The notes beneath the pieces are model-generated. The model did not search any database, had not been told where the DNA came from, and saw nothing but the letters and a program-made list of their open reading frames with translations. The position numbers were made by a program, and so were the translations under genes. From a virus (taxonomy: Duplodnaviria; Heunggongvirae; Uroviricota; Caudoviricetes): DNA of 25,865 bases. This document shows positions 1 to 25,865 of the stretch, in pieces (position 1 is the stretch's first letter; every line of letters begins with the position of its first letter). Location: the IMG/VR virus record IMGVR_UViG_2582580933_000011, positions 1 through 25,865 of that record; one strand, given 5' to 3'.

Positions 1-131
1 GAAGACAGTGACCTCCGTCTGGCCGGTTCGGATTCGTACCTCGCAGAGGTCTTTCCTCGTTACCAGTGCCGTCACAATGACGGTTAAACAGATGACGATC
101 AGAGCGATTAACATCGCTTTTTGCTGCTTCA
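1..131 (-). CDS. hok: Hok/Gef-family type I toxin (small membrane toxin); 3' end cut by window start
   Basis: Minus-strand ORF with ATG at 129-131 preceded by GGAG. Manual translation MKQQKAMLIALIVICLTVIVTALVTRKDLCEVRIRTGQTEVTVF... fits the Hok/Gef pattern (single TM helix, conserved RKxLCE and TGQTEV motifs). A mok-like overlapping frame starts at ATG 188-190 in a different frame, as in hok/mok/sok loci. Confidence 0.75.
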
Positions 132-313
132 TAGCCTGCTTCTCCTTGACCTTTTGGTCGGTAAGAGGCTAATCTACGTATGCTAAGCATAGATATGGCC
201 TCAGATTAATGTTAAGCGTCTTGCAGGACGCGTAATGTTATCTGGGGCTTTCTTCTATCTGCTTTTCTGGTAATGCCTGAAGCAGATAGCCTCAAGCACC
301 CGCAACGATTGTA
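132..313. promoter_or_regulatory. hok mRNA leader region; expected location of mok start and a sok-type antisense RNA/promoter
   Basis: Inferred from the canonical architecture of hok/sok loci (antisense RNA overlapping the mok/hok leader). No specific promoter was mapped from sequence. Confidence 0.3.
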
Positions 314-3711: not shown

Positions 3712-3764
3712 AGTTACGGCCTCACAATCAGGTTTAACAACCTGCTACCCGCTGTCAAACAGGT

Positions 3765-3860
3765 GGCAGGACGTGACAGGGTTGACAGACTGGCGATTGT
3801 GAAACCAGCAGGCCGAAGCCTCCCCATCACGCCCCACCATAATTTGGGCGTAACGCGGTT
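3765..3860 (-). ncRNA. candidate c4-like antisense repressor RNA (approximate bounds)
   Basis: The central element 3781-3802 (plus gttgacagactggcgattgtga) is the inverted complement of motifs at 3722-3760 (CACAATCA ... CTGTCAAAC, overlapping the icd SD) and 3907-3929 (CACAATCA ... CTGTCAAAC). This is the a1/b1 - a'/b' - a2/b2 layout described for P1/P7 c4. Ends of the RNA cannot be fixed from sequence alone. Confidence 0.4.
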
Positions 3861-4025
3861 TAACGGACACAAAAATACCGCAATATCGGAAATCTGCGGT
3901 TGTCCGCACAATCATTCAGGCTGTCAAACCTGGTCGCAGAATTTGCTACGACGGCGGAACTATAAGCCTGAACGATTAAAAGGTCAATATGATGCGAAAA
4001 GATAGCATTCGTGACTTAAAAATAC

Positions 4026-8605: not shown

Positions 8606-11600
8606 ATGGAAAGAAAAAACGCCAACATTGACGATGTTATAAGGACAGTTGAAACCGCCAGCGCAAAAGAGCTGGAAGAGCTTGCAGGTATCCGGGAAGC
8701 TGTTGAAGATTTGAAAGGGGGACGCGTTGCAACTGTTGATCCTGTCTCTCACAGTGTGTCGGCATTAAATCGCACAATCGAAAATTCCAGGCCAGACTTT
8801 GTGGCCAATGCGCCATCAGTGGCCCCTATTGTTGAGGCAATGAAACGGCTTAATTTAGGGGACGTTTCTCGTGTAGTTCAGGAGGATGTTGCTCTACAGG
8901 AACCGCAGGCCAAATCAACTACGCGAAAGGGTAAAAAACGACGCAAGAAGGCTATAACAGAAGATGTAAAGGCGCAACGGACCGAAGCAGCCGAACACGC
9001 TCGCGAAATGTTCGGTCAAAAAGGCGGTGCGCAAAAAAGCCAAAACCAACGCGATGCGCGTGGTCGTTTTATTGGAAAGCCAGGGAGTAAGGCCGCAGCG
9101 GAAGATGCCCGTGCTGAACGTGCTGAAAAGGCCAGGCGCAAAGAGGATGATGAGCGTCTAAATGCTGAATCAGGTTTATTAAAAAAACTGTCAAAAGTAG
9201 CTGAAGGCATAGGTAACCCTTCAGAGACTCGCGCCGTCGATGCGTTAGGTTATGCCGTTGCTGGTCCATTGTGGGCCGCAGGGAAGGAGCTTGGCGGGAT
9301 ATCAAAAGAAGTTGGTGGATCGCTTAATGGTGCCAGAAAGTCTATTGCCGATGTGATTCGTGGCAATGACGATAACAGCCGTAGAAAAGGTTTTTTTAGG
9401 CGTAAATCGCAAAATAGTGCCGATGTCGTTCAGGTTAACACCCAAAAACGGACGGTTCAGGAACTTCAGGATCAGACCAGCGAAATTAAAGAGGGCAATG
9501 ACAAGATTCTCAGCGCCCTTGATCAGATAGCCAAAAACACCGGGAAAAAGAAGGGCGGCTTGCTGTCCAAATTATTTAGCCTGTTAGGGAAGGGGGCCGG
9601 TGGCGTCGCGTCGTTGTTTATGGGGCGTGGCATGCTGAAAAAAGCTGGAGCACTCGCTTTTGGCGCTCTGGGGGCAAAGAAACTTGTAGGAATGCTACGC
9701 GGTGGTGGCAAGAAGACTCTCGCCCATGAAGGCGGAGATTTGGCTGCCCGGGCAGCAGGTAAACTTGGATTAAAGGCAGTTGGTAAAGGGGCGTTACGCG
9801 CAATTCCCCTAGTCGGCACAGTGGCTGGAGGTATTTATGATGCGGTAACCGGTTGGAATGATACAGAAGCGCAACGTCGAGCGTTTGGGCTTAAATCAGG
9901 ACAAGATCCATCATTCCAGCAAAAAGCCGCTTATACGTTAGCCAATGTTCTTGATTTGGGGGGACTGGTATCTGGTATTAGCAGTGCTATTGGTGATGTT
10001 CTCAAATCACTTGGATTTGAGGATATCGGCAATATGTTGCAATCATTTTCGACGGAAAGTATTGCCCAGGCCATTGATAGTGGGATTACCAACTTAGAAA
10101 CATATATTTCTAACCTTGGCGACACCATTTCTACCAAGTTCGATGATTACACAGCAAAGATTGGTGATGCTGTTTCAGCATGGTTTAGCGATACATCTAA
10201 TAAGCTGCTTGAAAAGCTGGATGCCATCAAAGACTTCTTTACTGTCGATAACCTGAAACAGGTTTTCAGTGATGCAATTGATAGTGCAATTGATTTCATT
10301 AAGAACCCAGGGAAACACATTAAAGAGGCAGCTAGTAATATTTGGGATGGGGTTAAAAATTTACCAGGTAAAGCATTAGATGCAGCGGTTGATGCCGTTA
10401 AAAATACCCCTGCGGCAATGATTGTATCAAAAACACCCAATCCGATCGGCGAGGCTAATGCGAAAGAAATCACTCCAGAGTTAAAAGCTCCGGTTAATAG
10501 CCAGCAGGGGACATCTGATTCTAAAGCTGAATCCGATGCCAAACAGACTAATATTGCTGCCCGCGTGATAAATGCGGCCCTGGATATGGCGAAAGATAGC
10601 AATAAAACAGTTAAAGAAACTGCTAATCAGATTATCAATGCAAATGCCGTAGAAACAGGAAATAAAGCAGCACAAACAATTGATGCTGCCTTGGGCCAGT
10701 CTGCTACAGGTAAGGAGGAAGCATTAAGTGCATATGAGATAGATAAACGTCGATTTAACAATGGCAAGGATGTTTCTTTGCCAAAATTAAATGCTGCCGG
10801 ATACCAATGGATTTCTGACAATGCCGATTATTTTGATGAGCTTGAACGTAAGTATGGGCTTGAAAAAGGGATTCTGTCAGCAGTTGCATCCGCAGAGTCT
10901 AGTGCAGGCCAGAGAACTGGAAATCCAGTAGACAAAAACGGGAACAAACTTTCATCTGCCCTTGGGGCTTTTCAGATCACTAAAGGTACAAGGGAGGATC
11001 TTGGACTCAGCGATGCTGATGCCATGGATACACGAAAAGCAGCTGATGGTGCCGCCAGATACCTAAGTATGCTGATGAACCGTTATAACGGTGATCAGGG
11101 TCGTGCAATAGCTGCCTATCATGCTGGTATGGGGCATGTTGATAAGGGGAGAGTAGTCGCCGGTACCGGCGAATATGTTACTCGTGTCAGAGGTTATCAG
11201 CAGATGCTCAATAATGGTGCCGTTTATGGCTCTAAGGTAGATCATAGCGCACCAGCAATTCACGAAAAGATACCTGATAACGCTGTTATCGATCAGTCTA
11301 CTGGCCTGGCGTTTACCCCTGGTGATAGCCCGTTTGAGAAAGGCGGTCTGGTAGACAAAATTGGCAATGCTGTTGGTGTTAACGATCTGGTCAACAAATT
11401 CATGAATGGCCGGGGTATGCGTCGGGAAGTCGTTCAGGGAACGCTCGAAGAACGTGCACGAGGGAAGGGGACCGCAACAGCAGCTGGCAATGTGTATGTT
11501 GATACTCCGATGCCAGTTGAAGAGGCGCGTCCGGTGGCCAGCAATTCAAGTTACTTTGACCAACTCGGCGCACAAATGGGGATTGATGGACTATTCGATA

Positions 11601-21608: not shown

Positions 21609-22048
21609 TTGGCTGGGGTGTATGCGCTCTTGCGTTAGCCTTAGCCGATCGCTATTTGCTAAAACGCAAGGACATCACGCATTTAGAACTTGGTGATGTG
21701 GAAATTAAACCGGGTTTCATCCGGGTGCCGTTCAAATACCGGTCTAAATTCCCGTTTTTGCGCGGCGCAACGGTCAGATATTGGATCCGCGATGTTCAGA
21801 AGCCGACGACAGTGATTGAAGGCGAACAACGTTGTTTGACGTCGGCTGAACAGGGCGAAAACAGTGAATGGTTGTACATACCCACTGAATATATGGGTAA
21901 AGGAGAGCGACTGTGGCATTTCAACGTCATGGTTACGCATGGCGACTCGTTCATTAACCCGTTGTATCGGATTTTCCCTGTTACTCAGCAAATCCGCAGA
22001 AGTTACGTAATAAATCTCGCACAGGATGTGTCAGATGACGAAAAATAA
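21605..22048 (+). CDS. LydB-like protein (putative antiholin / lysis regulator)
   Basis: 147 aa, start overlapping the holin stop. N-terminal hydrophobic segment. Assignment by position after the holin gene only. Confidence 0.4.
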   Translation: MIGWGVCALALALADRYLLKRKDITHLELGDVEIKPGFIRVPFKYRSKFPFLRGATVRYWIRDVQKPTTVIEGEQRCLTSAEQGENSEWLYIPTEYMGKGERLWHFNVMVTHGDSFINPLYRIFPVTQQIRRSYVINLAQDVSDDEK

Positions 22049-22637
22049 GTATGCAACGGTCGATTTTGACCAGGTTAATGAAAAGGGGCTGAAATCCCTT
22101 ATCGCGGCGATCAATAAAACCGGTGTTACGGTAATTGAGGTTGACTCCAGCAACCGCGCAACAACGAAAGATGGCGTTAAAGTTAAAACCGCAAAGCTGG
22201 TTCTTAACGACGGACAAATTCTTGCCATACAGGTAAACGATACTGGCGATATATCGTCTGTGAAGCTGAATGGAAAAGCTATTCCTAACGCTCAGTCGCC
22301 GGATATCAAGACGCTTGGTACCGTCATGGGGCAAGCGGCCAGCAAAAACTCCGCAAAATTCCAGAAATCACTGATCGCCAAAGCGAAACGTGTTGCCAAT
22401 CCGGTAGACAAGAAACCGGCAGTAAAATCCAACTTTCAGCGCCTGCAAGAAGCAAAACAGCGGAATGCTCAGGTGGTTGCCGCTTATAAGTCCGCGCAGA
22501 ATTCGGTGTCTTTCAATCAACAGCAGATCACTGATTTGCGGGCGAAGCTGGATACGGAGACGGGCCGACTCAATAACGAAAAGGCACGGAATGGCGAACT
22601 CAAACGTCGTCTTAAGCAACTGAAAGCAGGAAATTAA
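22035..22637 (+). CDS. DarA N-terminal-domain paralog (200 aa)
   Basis: ORF track start 22026; ATG at 22035 has AGGA upstream. Shares with the N-terminal third of the next protein the pattern DGQ(I/T)(L/I)(A/S)I ... KNSAKFQ followed by a Lys-rich stretch. Confidence 0.5.
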   Translation: MTKNKYATVDFDQVNEKGLKSLIAAINKTGVTVIEVDSSNRATTKDGVKVKTAKLVLNDGQILAIQVNDTGDISSVKLNGKAIPNAQSPDIKTLGTVMGQAASKNSAKFQKSLIAKAKRVANPVDKKPAVKSNFQRLQEAKQRNAQVVAAYKSAQNSVSFNQQQITDLRAKLDTETGRLNNEKARNGELKRRLKQLKAGN

Positions 22638-22638
22638 C

Positions 22639-24558
22639 ATGGAACAGTTCAATATCAATAAAGGGGTGACGATCAAGCCTGGGCTTGACGTACTTCCCCC
22701 GCCAGTGACTGATGATGAATATCGCGCATTAATGGCCGGAGAGGACCGCTATCTGATGACGGAATCCAACACCCTGGAGGAAATCGAGGCTACGTTCTTC
22801 TATGACACGCCGATCCACTGGTGTGCTACGGATTTACTGGAGGCGATTAGTTCTACTCGTTTGCAGTTACACCGGACCATGCAGGCATTTGTCCGGGTAT
22901 TGAACCAGAAGCTGAATGGTACCGGAATCTCTGCGGGGAGTGATAAAACGGGGGATGTGGCCCAGAGCGGCGCGCGAGCGATCGGCGGCGCTGAAATTGG
23001 CCGGGCACGTAACGTTAACGGGCTGCCGGTCCTGCCAGCCATTATCCCGCTCAGTGATGGTCAGACTATCAGCATTCTGTTTCATAGCCCGACAGCGGAA
23101 AACCGGATCACCAATAGCGATACGCTGGTTGCTTTCCAGTTCTTACTGAATAAAAAAGACGTTACTCACACCGTTGCTCCGATGAGTGGACGTGATATGA
23201 CGCTGGCGCAGGTCACCATGAAACTTGCCAACCTTGCAGAGAAAAACTCGGCAAAATTCCAGCGTGCGCAGAAGAAGAAAAAAGCCCTGGTTGATGAAAT
23301 AACCCAACTACAGACTGACAGTGACCAGAAAGAGGATGCCATGAGCGACCTCGCGGATCAGGTGGCAGCGGTAGAAGGCCAGAAGGCAGATCTGGAGCAG
23401 AAAATTAACGCGGTTGCTTCGGAAGCAGATTCTCTTTATCAAGAAAATGAGCGTTTGCAGGCGGAGATTGATCAGCTCAATCGCACTGGTGGGCGCGATA
23501 CCATTGCTCCAGCGGGGATGACTGGTGGGCACTCTCGCGCGCTGACGGATCGCCTTGCCAGCATCAAAAATCGTATGCATATGAACGGGGAAGTGACGCT
23601 CAGTAATGGTGCATCAATGAAGCAATTCATTGGGGATGGCGAAGGGTATATCCAGTTAACCGATTCGGATGGCAGCGTGTACATGATCAAGGCTAAATCC
23701 ATACAGGGTGTGGACATGGCAGATGCGATCGGCAAGCTGTTTAAAGCCTATAAAGCGGGTAATGTATCGGAATACCTGGTCCAACCAGAAGAACATAAAC
23801 CGGAAAACGTCGAACCTGAACCAGCGGAGGATACCGGTAGCTCTTCGCCTGAACCAGAAGTCTCTGTAGGTGCATATCGATATGCCCTGCATATGCGTCC
23901 GGCGGCCCCTGGCGCAATACCTGAAGGTAACAAAGCAATTCTGCCGCGCCCTGATGAAGGTGACCCGTATTATGAATATGCACGCTACGGCATTGCTACT
24001 TACGATACCCCGCTTTCTGATCAGCAAATGAGTGAGTACGACCTGAAGTTATTGCCTCGCGAGGATTCTTTCGACTTCCTGGCGAAGACACTTACTAATG
24101 GTCCGTTTGGCAAATATGCACAAAAAGCTCTGGAGCTGGCCACCAACTCACCAGACGAGTTCCGCGTAATGCTGAAAACTCAGTTTCAAAAAACATTCCC
24201 CAACATTGCGTTTCCGGGGGGCGCTGGCACCGAGAAAATGGTGCAGAGCATGATCAAGGCATTGCAGGCCGAAGTCGGTGAGATTACTCAACCAGAACCG
24301 GTCCCGGCACAGCCTGATGAAACGGTTAGCGAAGCAGATGCAGAGGCTAATAAAGCCATTGAATATCTCAATAGCGTGATGGATATGCAAAGCACTGACA
24401 TGGCGGAGATCCGTAACGCCCGGGGCAATGTCCGGGAAGCGATTGCTGCCCTTCAGGCTGCCGGACGTTTTGAGGAAAACGAAGAGCTGGTTAACGGTGC
24501 TGCTCGCCACCTGGCTGATCTGCTGGTAGCAATCCAGAAAGCGGGGGTAGCGGCATGA
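22639..24558 (+). CDS. darA: DarA-like protein (virion-associated antirestriction/head protein candidate), 639 aa
   Basis: Size and position after the holin/antiholin pair match P1 darA as recalled. Central coiled-coil region (QLQTDSDQKEDAMSDLADQVAAVEGQKADLEQKINAVASEADSLYQENERLQAEIDQL). No sequence-level confirmation possible here. Confidence 0.5.
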   Translation: MEQFNINKGVTIKPGLDVLPPPVTDDEYRALMAGEDRYLMTESNTLEEIEATFFYDTPIHWCATDLLEAISSTRLQLHRTMQAFVRVLNQKLNGTGISAGSDKTGDVAQSGARAIGGAEIGRARNVNGLPVLPAIIPLSDGQTISILFHSPTAENRITNSDTLVAFQFLLNKKDVTHTVAPMSGRDMTLAQVTMKLANLAEKNSAKFQRAQKKKKALVDEITQLQTDSDQKEDAMSDLADQVAAVEGQKADLEQKINAVASEADSLYQENERLQAEIDQLNRTGGRDTIAPAGMTGGHSRALTDRLASIKNRMHMNGEVTLSNGASMKQFIGDGEGYIQLTDSDGSVYMIKAKSIQGVDMADAIGKLFKAYKAGNVSEYLVQPEEHKPENVEPEPAEDTGSSSPEPEVSVGAYRYALHMRPAAPGAIPEGNKAILPRPDEGDPYYEYARYGIATYDTPLSDQQMSEYDLKLLPREDSFDFLAKTLTNGPFGKYAQKALELATNSPDEFRVMLKTQFQKTFPNIAFPGGAGTEKMVQSMIKALQAEVGEITQPEPVPAQPDETVSEADAEANKAIEYLNSVMDMQSTDMAEIRNARGNVREAIAALQAAGRFEENEELVNGAARHLADLLVAIQKAGVAA

Positions 24559-24920
24559 CACTATCAGCTATTGAGTTAATGGACCTCAGCGATAAGTTGG
24601 ATGCTCTGATGTCCAAAGCGGCTACCGCGAGTGGCATGGAGTTGCTGGATATCAGCGATGAAATTGACCAGATCATGCAACAGATGGGGTACGGCGCGTC
24701 CGGCGGCAGTAGTGGCGAGGAAAAACAACCTTCGGTACATGATGGTGTGCCAAAACTGGTTGCTGATTTCCTGGCTGATAAATTCGTCGATCAGAGCACT
24801 GATGCATTTATCGGTACGTTACAGGACTTGAGTCAATATGTTGGCACATACATCGACCTGGACCAGGTTAAACAGCACACGGCGGCATGGATAGCCGCCA
24901 ACATTAAAGAGGCAGCGTGA
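24555..24920 (+). CDS. small acidic protein (DdrA-like by position), 121 aa
   Basis: Start overlaps the darA-like stop (ATGA). Acidic, Gly/Ser-rich linker. Immediately followed by the IS end. Confidence 0.45.
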   Translation: MTLSAIELMDLSDKLDALMSKAATASGMELLDISDEIDQIMQQMGYGASGGSSGEEKQPSVHDGVPKLVADFLADKFVDQSTDAFIGTLQDLSQYVGTYIDLDQVKQHTAAWIAANIKEAA

Positions 24921-25865
24921 CATCCTCCACGCCCCGAAGGGCGTGGATTCCTGCTACGTTCAGGCTGTCGCCTGAATCATTTCGGTGGGTTCCTGCTTCA
25001 ACGGGCGGCCTGACTGCACCATCCCTCCACAGGCAAGTACGGCGTGCCCCGCCGCTAAAATGTTACGAGCGCCGTTTACATCGGCGTTCGCTGTATATCC
25101 ACATACCTGGCATCTGAATTTACTTTGTGACAGGCGATTTTCTTTCGCTGTATGACCACAGCACGCGCAACGCTGGCTTGTGTACGCTGGCGGAACAGCA
25201 AGCACCTGACCGCCACGCCAGAGCTGCTTGTACTCAAGCTGGCGGCGCATTTCATACCAGCCCTGATCCAGTATCGAACGGTTTAAACCTGATTTTGCCC
25301 GGACATTGCGACCCGGATGACTTATCGTTCCCGCCGCTGACTTTGACATGTATTTAACCTTCAAATCCTCAATGACAATCATTGCGTGGTTTTTGCTGAC
25401 GGTCGTTGTGACTTTGTGAAGGTAGTCCCTGCGGATATTTGCGATACGGGAATGCAGTCGCTGTATTTTGCGTTTCTGCTTCTGCCAGTTGTTGCTGAAT
25501 TTGACCTTGCGGCTTAACTGTCGCTGAAGTCTCGCCAGCTTCTTCTGGTTTTTCTGAAAACTATTTACAGGTTCAAAGACTGTGCCATCTGACAGCGTGG
25601 CGAGTTTAGCCACGCCAGCATCCAGTCCGACCATTGATGCTGAAGGGTGAACAGGAGTGGATACCTCTCTTTCTGTCTGAATACTGATGTACCACTTACC
25701 GCAGGACTGGCTGACAGTAACATTTTTCACAATACCCGTGACCTGACGGCTATTCCGGTAGCGCATCCAGCCAAGTTTCGGCAGAAAAATACGGCTGTTT
25801 TCCTGATCGAGCTTAACACCCTGCGGGTAGCGGAATGCATCATTCTGTCCCCGCTTTTTGAATCG
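24921..25865 (-). mobile_element. IS200/IS605-family insertion sequence, right end plus tnpB (continues beyond the window)
   Basis: TnpB ORF plus a subterminal GC-rich hairpin (CCACGCCC cgaa GGGCGTGG, 24927-24946) directly after the tnpB stop and abutting the stop codon of the upstream phage gene. Confidence 0.75.
24960..25865 (-). CDS. tnpB: TnpB (IS605 OrfB-type RuvC-like nuclease with C-terminal zinc finger); N-terminus lies beyond window end
   Basis: Manual extension of the frame to the window edge gives ...[64 protein letters not shown]..., the conserved central TnpB region. C-terminal CxxC...CxxC ([37 protein letters not shown]). Confidence 0.9.

Follow-up and report, generated by a model that had tools for sequence, protein, structure and literature searches.

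An IS609-family tnpB-only element at the ddrA/ddrB junction of a P1-like phage-plasmid

The window analyzed here, i.e., the whole 25,865 nt stretch of the viral record IMGVR_UViG_2582580933_000011, ends inside an IS609-family (IS200/IS605) element that carries tnpB without tnpA. Taken together, the evidence makes it probable that this element was inserted once, in an ancestral P1-like phage-plasmid, at the ddrA/ddrB junction, that the dar operon was split as a result, and that the occupied site was then spread by recombination. The features involved are given below with their window coordinates.

22026-22637, plus strand: hdf, assigned by Pfam and by synteny with P1 and RCS47
22639-24558, plus strand: darA, assigned by Pfam (DarA_N and DarA_C) and by P1/RCS47 gene order
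24555-24920, plus strand: ddrA (121 aa), assigned by translation, P1/RCS47 annotation and junction comparison
24897-24916, minus strand: predicted guide GCUGCCUCUUUAAUGUUGGC, directly 3' of the IS end and antisense to the last 20 nt of ddrA
24917-24920, minus strand: right-end cleavage tetranucleotide TCAC (TCAA in canonical IS609)
24917-25061, minus strand: predicted omega RNA scaffold (145 nt, six helices), from covariation and sub-threshold Rfam matches
24917-25865, minus strand: right-hand 949 bp of the 1335 bp tnpB-only element, with no mismatches to the RCS47 copy
24926-24947, unstranded: right-end subterminal hairpin TCCACGCCC-TTCG-GGGCGTGGA (IS top strand), from ssDNA folding and covariation
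24960-25865, minus strand: tnpB codons 102-402 and stop codon, from Pfam and phmmer against ISDra2 TnpB

Insertion site and element boundaries

Over positions 24400-25865, the window shares 99.8% identity with the P1-like phage-plasmid RCS47 (Escherichia phage RCS47). The match to P1, P7 and further relatives that lack the IS stopped at window position 24916 (query position 517). The IS terminus was therefore placed at base 24917, which means that the third base of the last ddrA codon (24917) and the TGA stop codon (24918-24920) are IS sequence. At this junction, P1 reads ...gaggcagcaTAAggcg and the window reads ...gaggcagcgTGAcatcc. The vacant locus of P1 has the order ...GAGGCAGCA-TAA-GGCGTAAC...ATG, where ATG is the ddrB start and the two genes are 12 bp apart; RCS47 and the window have ...GAGGCAGC/GTGACATCC...CACATTGG/ATAAGGCGTAAC, where slashes enclose the 1335 bp IS and the far junction was read in RCS47. 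On the IS top strand, which is the minus strand of the window, this arrangement becomes TTAT/CCAATGTGCC...GGAGGATGTCAC/GCTGCCTC. When RCS47 and the window were compared with P1, removal of the IS restored the vacant site TTAT/GCTGCCTC exactly, no target duplication was found, and the vacant and occupied loci differed in length by exactly 1335 bp.

The insertion lies after the second base of the last ddrA codon. The third base supplied by the IS keeps this codon as alanine, the DdrA amino acid sequence is unaltered, and the ancestral TAA stop of ddrA is now found past the left end of the IS, beyond the window. An a/g difference at the last ddrA codon was considered as a polymorphism and rejected, since a one-base shift of the boundary (TTAT, IS, GCTGCC) fits the vacant P1 site exactly; this boundary is also consistent with chromosomal IS609 copies. 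TTAT was found immediately 5' of the left end both in the P1-borne element, with the left junction taken from relatives, and in all five chromosomal IS609 copies inspected, which represent four different loci. The cleavage sites reported for IS609 are TTAT on the left and TCAA on the right (PMC6906374), and sites of this type are common within the family (PMC9956272).

The 949 bp in the window are the right-hand part of the element. A further 386 bp, with tnpB codons 1-101 and an 83-nt left end, lie past the window end, their length being deduced from relatives; in RCS47 the IS occupies positions 9518-10852 of the compared locus. IS positions 100-1334, which cover tnpB and the right end, showed 95% DNA identity to chromosomal E. 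coli IS609 (insQ/ydcM tnpB), and the TnpB protein was 91-93% identical to that of the chromosomal copies at their genome loci. The TTAT target, the right-end hairpin and the GGAGGATGTCA terminus are also shared with IS609. Canonical IS609, by comparison, has a divergent tnpA and a strong left-end hairpin; here the left-end hairpin is weak and no tnpA was found in the element, in which the distance from the left terminus to the tnpB ATG is just 83 nt (this part was read in relatives). Moreover, the IS609 match within the first 99 nt (left end and linker) was limited to a 26-nt stretch with 88% identity, and the last base of the element is C rather than A (TCAC vs TCAA). The absence of tnpA makes the element non-autonomous. 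A tnpB-only, IS1341-like layout is recognized in the IS200/IS605 family and does not exclude membership, and the other features agree with it: OrfB_IS605 and TNB domains are present, terminal inverted repeats and target-site duplication are absent, and the insertion is 3' of TTAT.

Further analysis of the right end identified a 9-bp stem (24926-24934 paired with 24939-24947) with a 4-nt loop, which folds at -14.1 kcal/mol as ssDNA (z = -4.7); none of 200 shuffled sequences was as stable. This hairpin presumably serves as the ssDNA hairpin bound by TnpA and doubles as the last helix of the omega RNA. The left-end hairpin of the P1 variant reached -10.4 kcal/mol (z -1.7), compared to -21.6 kcal/mol (z -4.3) for the strong nested hairpin of the IS609 left end, and its inner hairpin, a weakly folding one, is unlike that of the right end. 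In about 56 divergent loci the right end GGAGGATGTCA followed by A or C was conserved, with flanks that diverge right after GTCA plus A or C; among the 56 listed loci, 53 terminate in TCAA and three in TCAC. All five chromosomal IS609 copies (four loci) terminate in GGAGGATGTCAA.

The loop of the right-end hairpin (window 24935-24938) was found in two forms among P1-borne copies: the window and RCS47 have TTCG, and copies such as those of SJ46 and E. albertii have the reverse complement of this, CGAA. The palindromic stem is constant apart from a single G-to-A change that the SJ46 group shows. The alternation of the loop suggests that the hairpin has been flipped by inversion or template switching.

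The initial annotation of this stretch, made from the letters alone, had proposed an IS200/IS605-family tnpB element directly after a DdrA-like gene. The family assignment is upheld by the Pfam domains, the 95% identity to IS609 and the genuine ends, and the position was borne out with the refinement that the IS begins inside the last ddrA codon and not after the stop. The comparison with intact P1 that it suggested fixed the junction at ddrA/ddrB, where P1 has a gap of 12 bp. A GC-rich hairpin noticed at 24927-24946 is real and extends by one base pair to 24926-24947 (z -4.7). As for the recommended search for the IS left end and for tnpA, tnpB proved to be bounded by genuine ends, the left one seen in relatives (RCS47), and no tnpA was found in what is a tnpB-only element.

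TnpB, the predicted omega RNA and its target

The minus-strand ORF at 24960-25865 is open over all of its 301 codons and continues past the end of the window, with its stop codon at 24960-24962. Pfam identified OrfB_IS605 (PF01385, E 8e-35) and Cas12f1-like_TNB (PF07282, E 1.5e-24), in agreement with the earlier proposal of a TnpB ORF ending at 24960. The RuvC residues D183 (25620-25622), E267 (25368-25370) and D363 (25080-25082) are all encoded in the window and align with the catalytic D, E and D of ISDra2 TnpB (phmmer of the full protein vs 8exa/8bf8, E 9e-52). Two zinc-finger motifs, CACCG from residue 334 and CQVCG from residue 353, are also present. As judged from these residues, the TnpB nuclease is apparently intact.

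The predicted omega RNA scaffold is made up of the last 34 tnpB codons plus the 43-nt right end; its terminus is the family-invariant GGAGGATGTCA followed by C. Covariation was assessed on the last 145 nt of the element in 43 relatives, the most distant of which have proteins only about 50-60% identical. In the consensus fold of 37 pairs, 96.9% of alignment cells were paired, compared to 39-54% when partners were slid by 1-3 columns. Compensatory changes were found at 15 pairs vs 5-7 in the slid controls, and none of 500 shuffles reached 15. Helix 6, the right-end hairpin, had five of its nine pairs changed on both sides, and the window copy forms all 37 consensus pairs. At gathering thresholds, Rfam reported no family at the IS. 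Sub-threshold matches on the tnpB-sense strand at its 3' end were HgcC (E 0.012), sot0042 (E 0.06) and RAGATH-18 (E 0.01), which are supportive but not decisive; at least HgcC and sot0042 are known tnpB-associated RNAs of the IS1341 type.

The 3' extension of this RNA would be antisense to roughly the last 16-20 nt of ddrA, and the predicted 20-nt guide is placed by its position directly past the IS end. On the minus strand, TTAT followed by GCTGCCTCTTTAATGTTGGC makes up the vacant ddrA/ddrB junction in P1, P7 and five other IS-free loci, with a perfect 20-nt match. TTAT has been taken as the TAM for IS609 TnpB (PMC12781874, supplement). By analogy with the published TnpB mechanism (Karvelis 2021, PMC8612924; Meers 2023, 10.1101/2023.03.14.532601; Mears 2025, 10.1101/2025.02.20.638934), TnpB and its omega RNA would be expected to recognize TTAT-GCTGCCTCTTTAATGT, i.e., the IS-free junction. 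The guide-matching DNA of the window itself is preceded by TCAC, not TTAT, and this copy is therefore not self-targeted. The initial annotation had anticipated an omega RNA at the right end with a guide derived from the 3' end of ddrA; covariation backs the structure, and position points to the predicted guide. Among eight IS-free loci, JL22 was the only one with an imperfect target, an A-to-G change at guide position 11 (ATTAAAGAG to ATTGAAGAG, at about position 2006 in the locus).

These features would place the element among OMEGA systems: the RuvC triad is intact, and a conserved structured RNA covers the 3' end of tnpB together with the IS right end, stops at the IS boundary and is followed by a variable guide. 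Compared with the ISDra2 TnpB-omega RNA complex (8exa, 8h1j), the domain order and the catalytic D-E-D are alike, as are an omega RNA over the tnpB 3' end and right end, a guide that corresponds to the flank past the right end, and a TAM that equals the left-end target motif. The proteins, however, are distant (phmmer E 9e-52), and the predicted TAM is TTAT vs TTGAT.

History of the element and state of the dar operon

Chromosomal IS609 was found in 5015 of 5426 E. coli genomes, and in the sampled chromosomal copies tnpA is divergently oriented and separated from tnpB by 7 bp on its upstream side. In most of them tnpA is frameshifted or truncated and tnpB is intact; only the O157:H7 copy has an intact tnpA. 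A fragment of IS609 was also observed in an inovirus genome, where positions 1400-2046 of filamentous phage If1 (NC_001954, 'ORF348') are 95.8% identical over 647 bp to the middle of IS609 tnpB.

The P1-borne IS copies differ from each other by up to 4.9% and their flanks by 3.3% or less. They are mosaic, with variant blocks (IS positions 113-182, 584-689 and 875-941) that carry alleles of chromosomal E. coli IS609, which indicates gene conversion between plasmid and host copies. All eight copies compared are 1335 bp long and retain an intact 402-aa ORF, with dN/dS of 0.15-0.22; as a consequence of conversion from IS609, this apparent purifying selection may be partly imported. The element could be an inert relic, with TnpB and omega RNA inactive or unexpressed and the ORF kept intact merely by conversion from the chromosome. 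The chromosomal alleles in the variant blocks would fit such a history, as would the degenerate left-end hairpin, the lack of tnpA and the fact that no other site was seen in 64 E. coli genomes and 12 IMG/VR contigs. This explanation is nevertheless considered unlikely, as the catalytic triad is kept along with the low dN/dS and the intact ORFs in all eight copies, the omega RNA helices of the window copy are intact, and immobility need not mean nuclease inactivity.

For the dar operon, the gene order lydA-lydB-hdf-darA-ddrA-ddrB matches that of P1 and RCS47 (Pfam LydB, DarA_N and DarA_C; ddrB from relatives). In RCS47, ddrB starts 17 bp past the IS, has the full length of 2988 bp as in P1 and is followed by hxr. 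The same 17-bp spacing was found in eight of eight carriers, i.e., RCS47 and seven others, with the gene end read in RCS47 only, and the original sequence upstream of ddrB, ATAAGGCGTAACAGGGATG, is retained in all eight. The dar operon is thus split by 1335 bp and not cut off, which for the molecule in the window is deduced from these relatives; ddrB and hxr would have been moved 1335 bp downstream rather than removed. The earlier view that the IS truncates the operon was therefore not sustained. That view had also placed both ddrB and hdf downstream of the insertion; this holds for ddrB, which is followed by hxr, but hdf lies upstream of darA (22026-22637).

Disruption could still be the main consequence if ddrB were silenced or its function lost. 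The IS does separate two genes that are 12 bp apart in P1, LPdar late transcripts must cross 1335 bp antisense to tnpB, and a weak terminator-like site is present on the plus strand inside the IS (window 25534-25549). However, neither promoter-like nor terminator-like sites were commoner inside the IS than in shuffled sequence (three terminator-like sites found, 2.4 expected), and the right-end hairpin is not followed by a T-run on the plus strand. Moreover, the arrangement persists, with ddrB intact, in about 17% of P1-like elements, which would be unexpected for a gene that was silenced and free to decay. With ddrB and its upstream ATAAGGCGTAACAGGGATG preserved in every carrier compared, and full length in RCS47, loss of ddrB function appears improbable.

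Elsewhere in the window, the sok antitoxin RNA of Rfam was matched over its full length at positions 127-301 (minus strand; 109.8 bits, E 3e-24), which indicates a hok/sok-type toxin-antitoxin locus at the window start. C4 antisense RNA and its a1/b1 target sites (P1 immI region) scored above Rfam gathering scores at 3759-3844 and 3913-3965, both on the minus strand.

The diagnostic left-end variant was found in 64 E. coli genomes, in which it was always plasmid-borne and never chromosomal, and in IMG/VR it was always at ddrA/ddrB (12 contigs). A match in Morganella phage IME1369_01 was considered as the P1-borne variant and rejected, as it is an ordinary IS609 with a tnpA remnant. The AR435 record, with two copies, was likewise rejected as a second site; it reflects terminal redundancy of a linear assembly. 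Since the left-end variant is restricted to plasmids and was at ddrA/ddrB in every locus checked (the two-copy NZ_CP021729.1 left out), a single ancestral insertion is the simplest reading. In this reading, an ancestral P1-like phage-plasmid acquired the element 3' of TTAT, at the stop codon of its ddrA, through the target-specific single-strand mechanism of the family. Repeated independent insertions into the same TTAT, by an IS still mobilized in trans by chromosomal IS609 TnpA, could draw on the intact tnpA of some E. coli (e.g., O157:H7), on IS609-type insertions reported elsewhere in P1 for pJIE250-3 (PMC6906374) and on tnpB-only relatives in Citrobacter with a similar left-end/linker layout, but seem very unlikely given that the variant occurs solely at ddrA/ddrB in those 64 genomes and 12 viral contigs, was not found on chromosomes even though IS609 is carried by 5015 of the 5426 genomes surveyed, and has an inner left-end hairpin that differs from the right-end one and folds weakly. 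An element that lacks tnpA, has a degenerate left end and was seen at one site only is probably maintained and dispersed through recombination among P1-like genomes and not by new transposition.

Spread among P1-like elements and biological meaning

Of 469 PLSDB records with the junction region, 356 had a contiguous vacant site and 72 the full ddrA-IS-ddrB arrangement; in IMG/VR, 57 contigs had the exact vacant site and 12 had the IS. Carriers thus make up about 17% of P1-like plasmids and viral contigs in both collections. The IS of the window is identical to that of RCS47 over its 949 bp, but in the darA/ddrA flank (23617-24916) the two disagree at 16 of the 1300 positions, each of which lies more than 400 bp away from the IS. 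Therefore, the window represents a recombinant relative and not RCS47 itself. One Salmonella plasmid has a P7-type right flank (one difference in 1100); the left flank of this plasmid departs from P7 solely in the interval 150-701 bp away from the IS, with RCS47-type alleles at the six scorable sites (150-348 bp). By its pattern of differences, this left-flank block looks like a conversion tract.

Carriers were interleaved with non-carriers on flank haplotypes, and the IS state required 9-10 changes on flank trees compared to about 13 when shuffled. Relative to minor-allele count, the number of changes was 0.57-0.70 for ordinary SNPs and 0.71 for the IS. The polyphyletic presence of the IS was considered as a signature of homing and dropped, since ordinary SNPs are equally scattered and pervasive recombination explains both. 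The matching scatter points to recombinational spread and lends no specific population support to TnpB-driven homing over plain recombination.

The match between guide and vacant site nevertheless raises the question of what the cassette might do. Its targets would be IS-free P1 relatives, or a copy that has lost the IS, and by analogy with published TnpB systems, cutting would favor repair from the IS-bearing copy, with homing, retention or a plasmid gene drive as possible outcomes. If so, cleavage of the ddrA/ddrB junction would convert IS-free relatives to carriers or exclude them, and a perfect target (TTAT plus the ddrA 3' end) is present in about 83% of sampled P1-like elements. It is a doubtful step from here to an immobilized tnpB-omega RNA cassette that acts as an RNA-guided weapon or gene drive against incoming or co-resident IS-free relatives and has been selected for that role rather than for transposition. 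The published plasmid TnpB system is similar in that an IS on a plasmid replicon has a guide that matches the IS-free allele of the same plasmid. It differs in that the carrier here is a low-copy phage-plasmid, whereas the preprint text does not deal with phages, and in that drive is here a prediction, with a population pattern indistinguishable from ordinary recombination.

The element described here is the same as the insQ annotated at the ddrA/ddrB junction of both RCS47 (NC_042128) and Salmonella phage SJ46 (NC_031129). An 'IS609-like sequence' has also been reported in the P1-like plasmid pSvP1 (PMC6906374), and the published coordinates suggest the ddrA/ddrB placement. In three published accounts of P1-like elements, of which that of RCS47 itself is not one, ddrA, ddrB, insQ and TnpB are unmentioned. 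As the element and its position are annotated in RCS47 and SJ46, and IS609 in P1-like plasmids as well as TnpB homing and plasmid gene drive have been published, the finding is a known and ordinary one. The additions made here are modest: the replacement of the ddrA stop codon, the match of the guide to the vacant site throughout P1-like elements, a left end that proved degenerate, and copies that are mosaic with chromosomal IS609.

The practical value lies mostly in annotation, namely a dar operon that is split and a ddrA stop codon that is supplied by the IS. In addition, the gene labeled 'transposase' would encode an RNA-guided nuclease whose target can be predicted. TnpB drive or exclusion has so far been shown experimentally only for ordinary plasmids; with a predicted guide and TAM that match the IS-free allele of most other P1-like phage-plasmids, this element could provide a natural and easily testable case of drive or exclusion.
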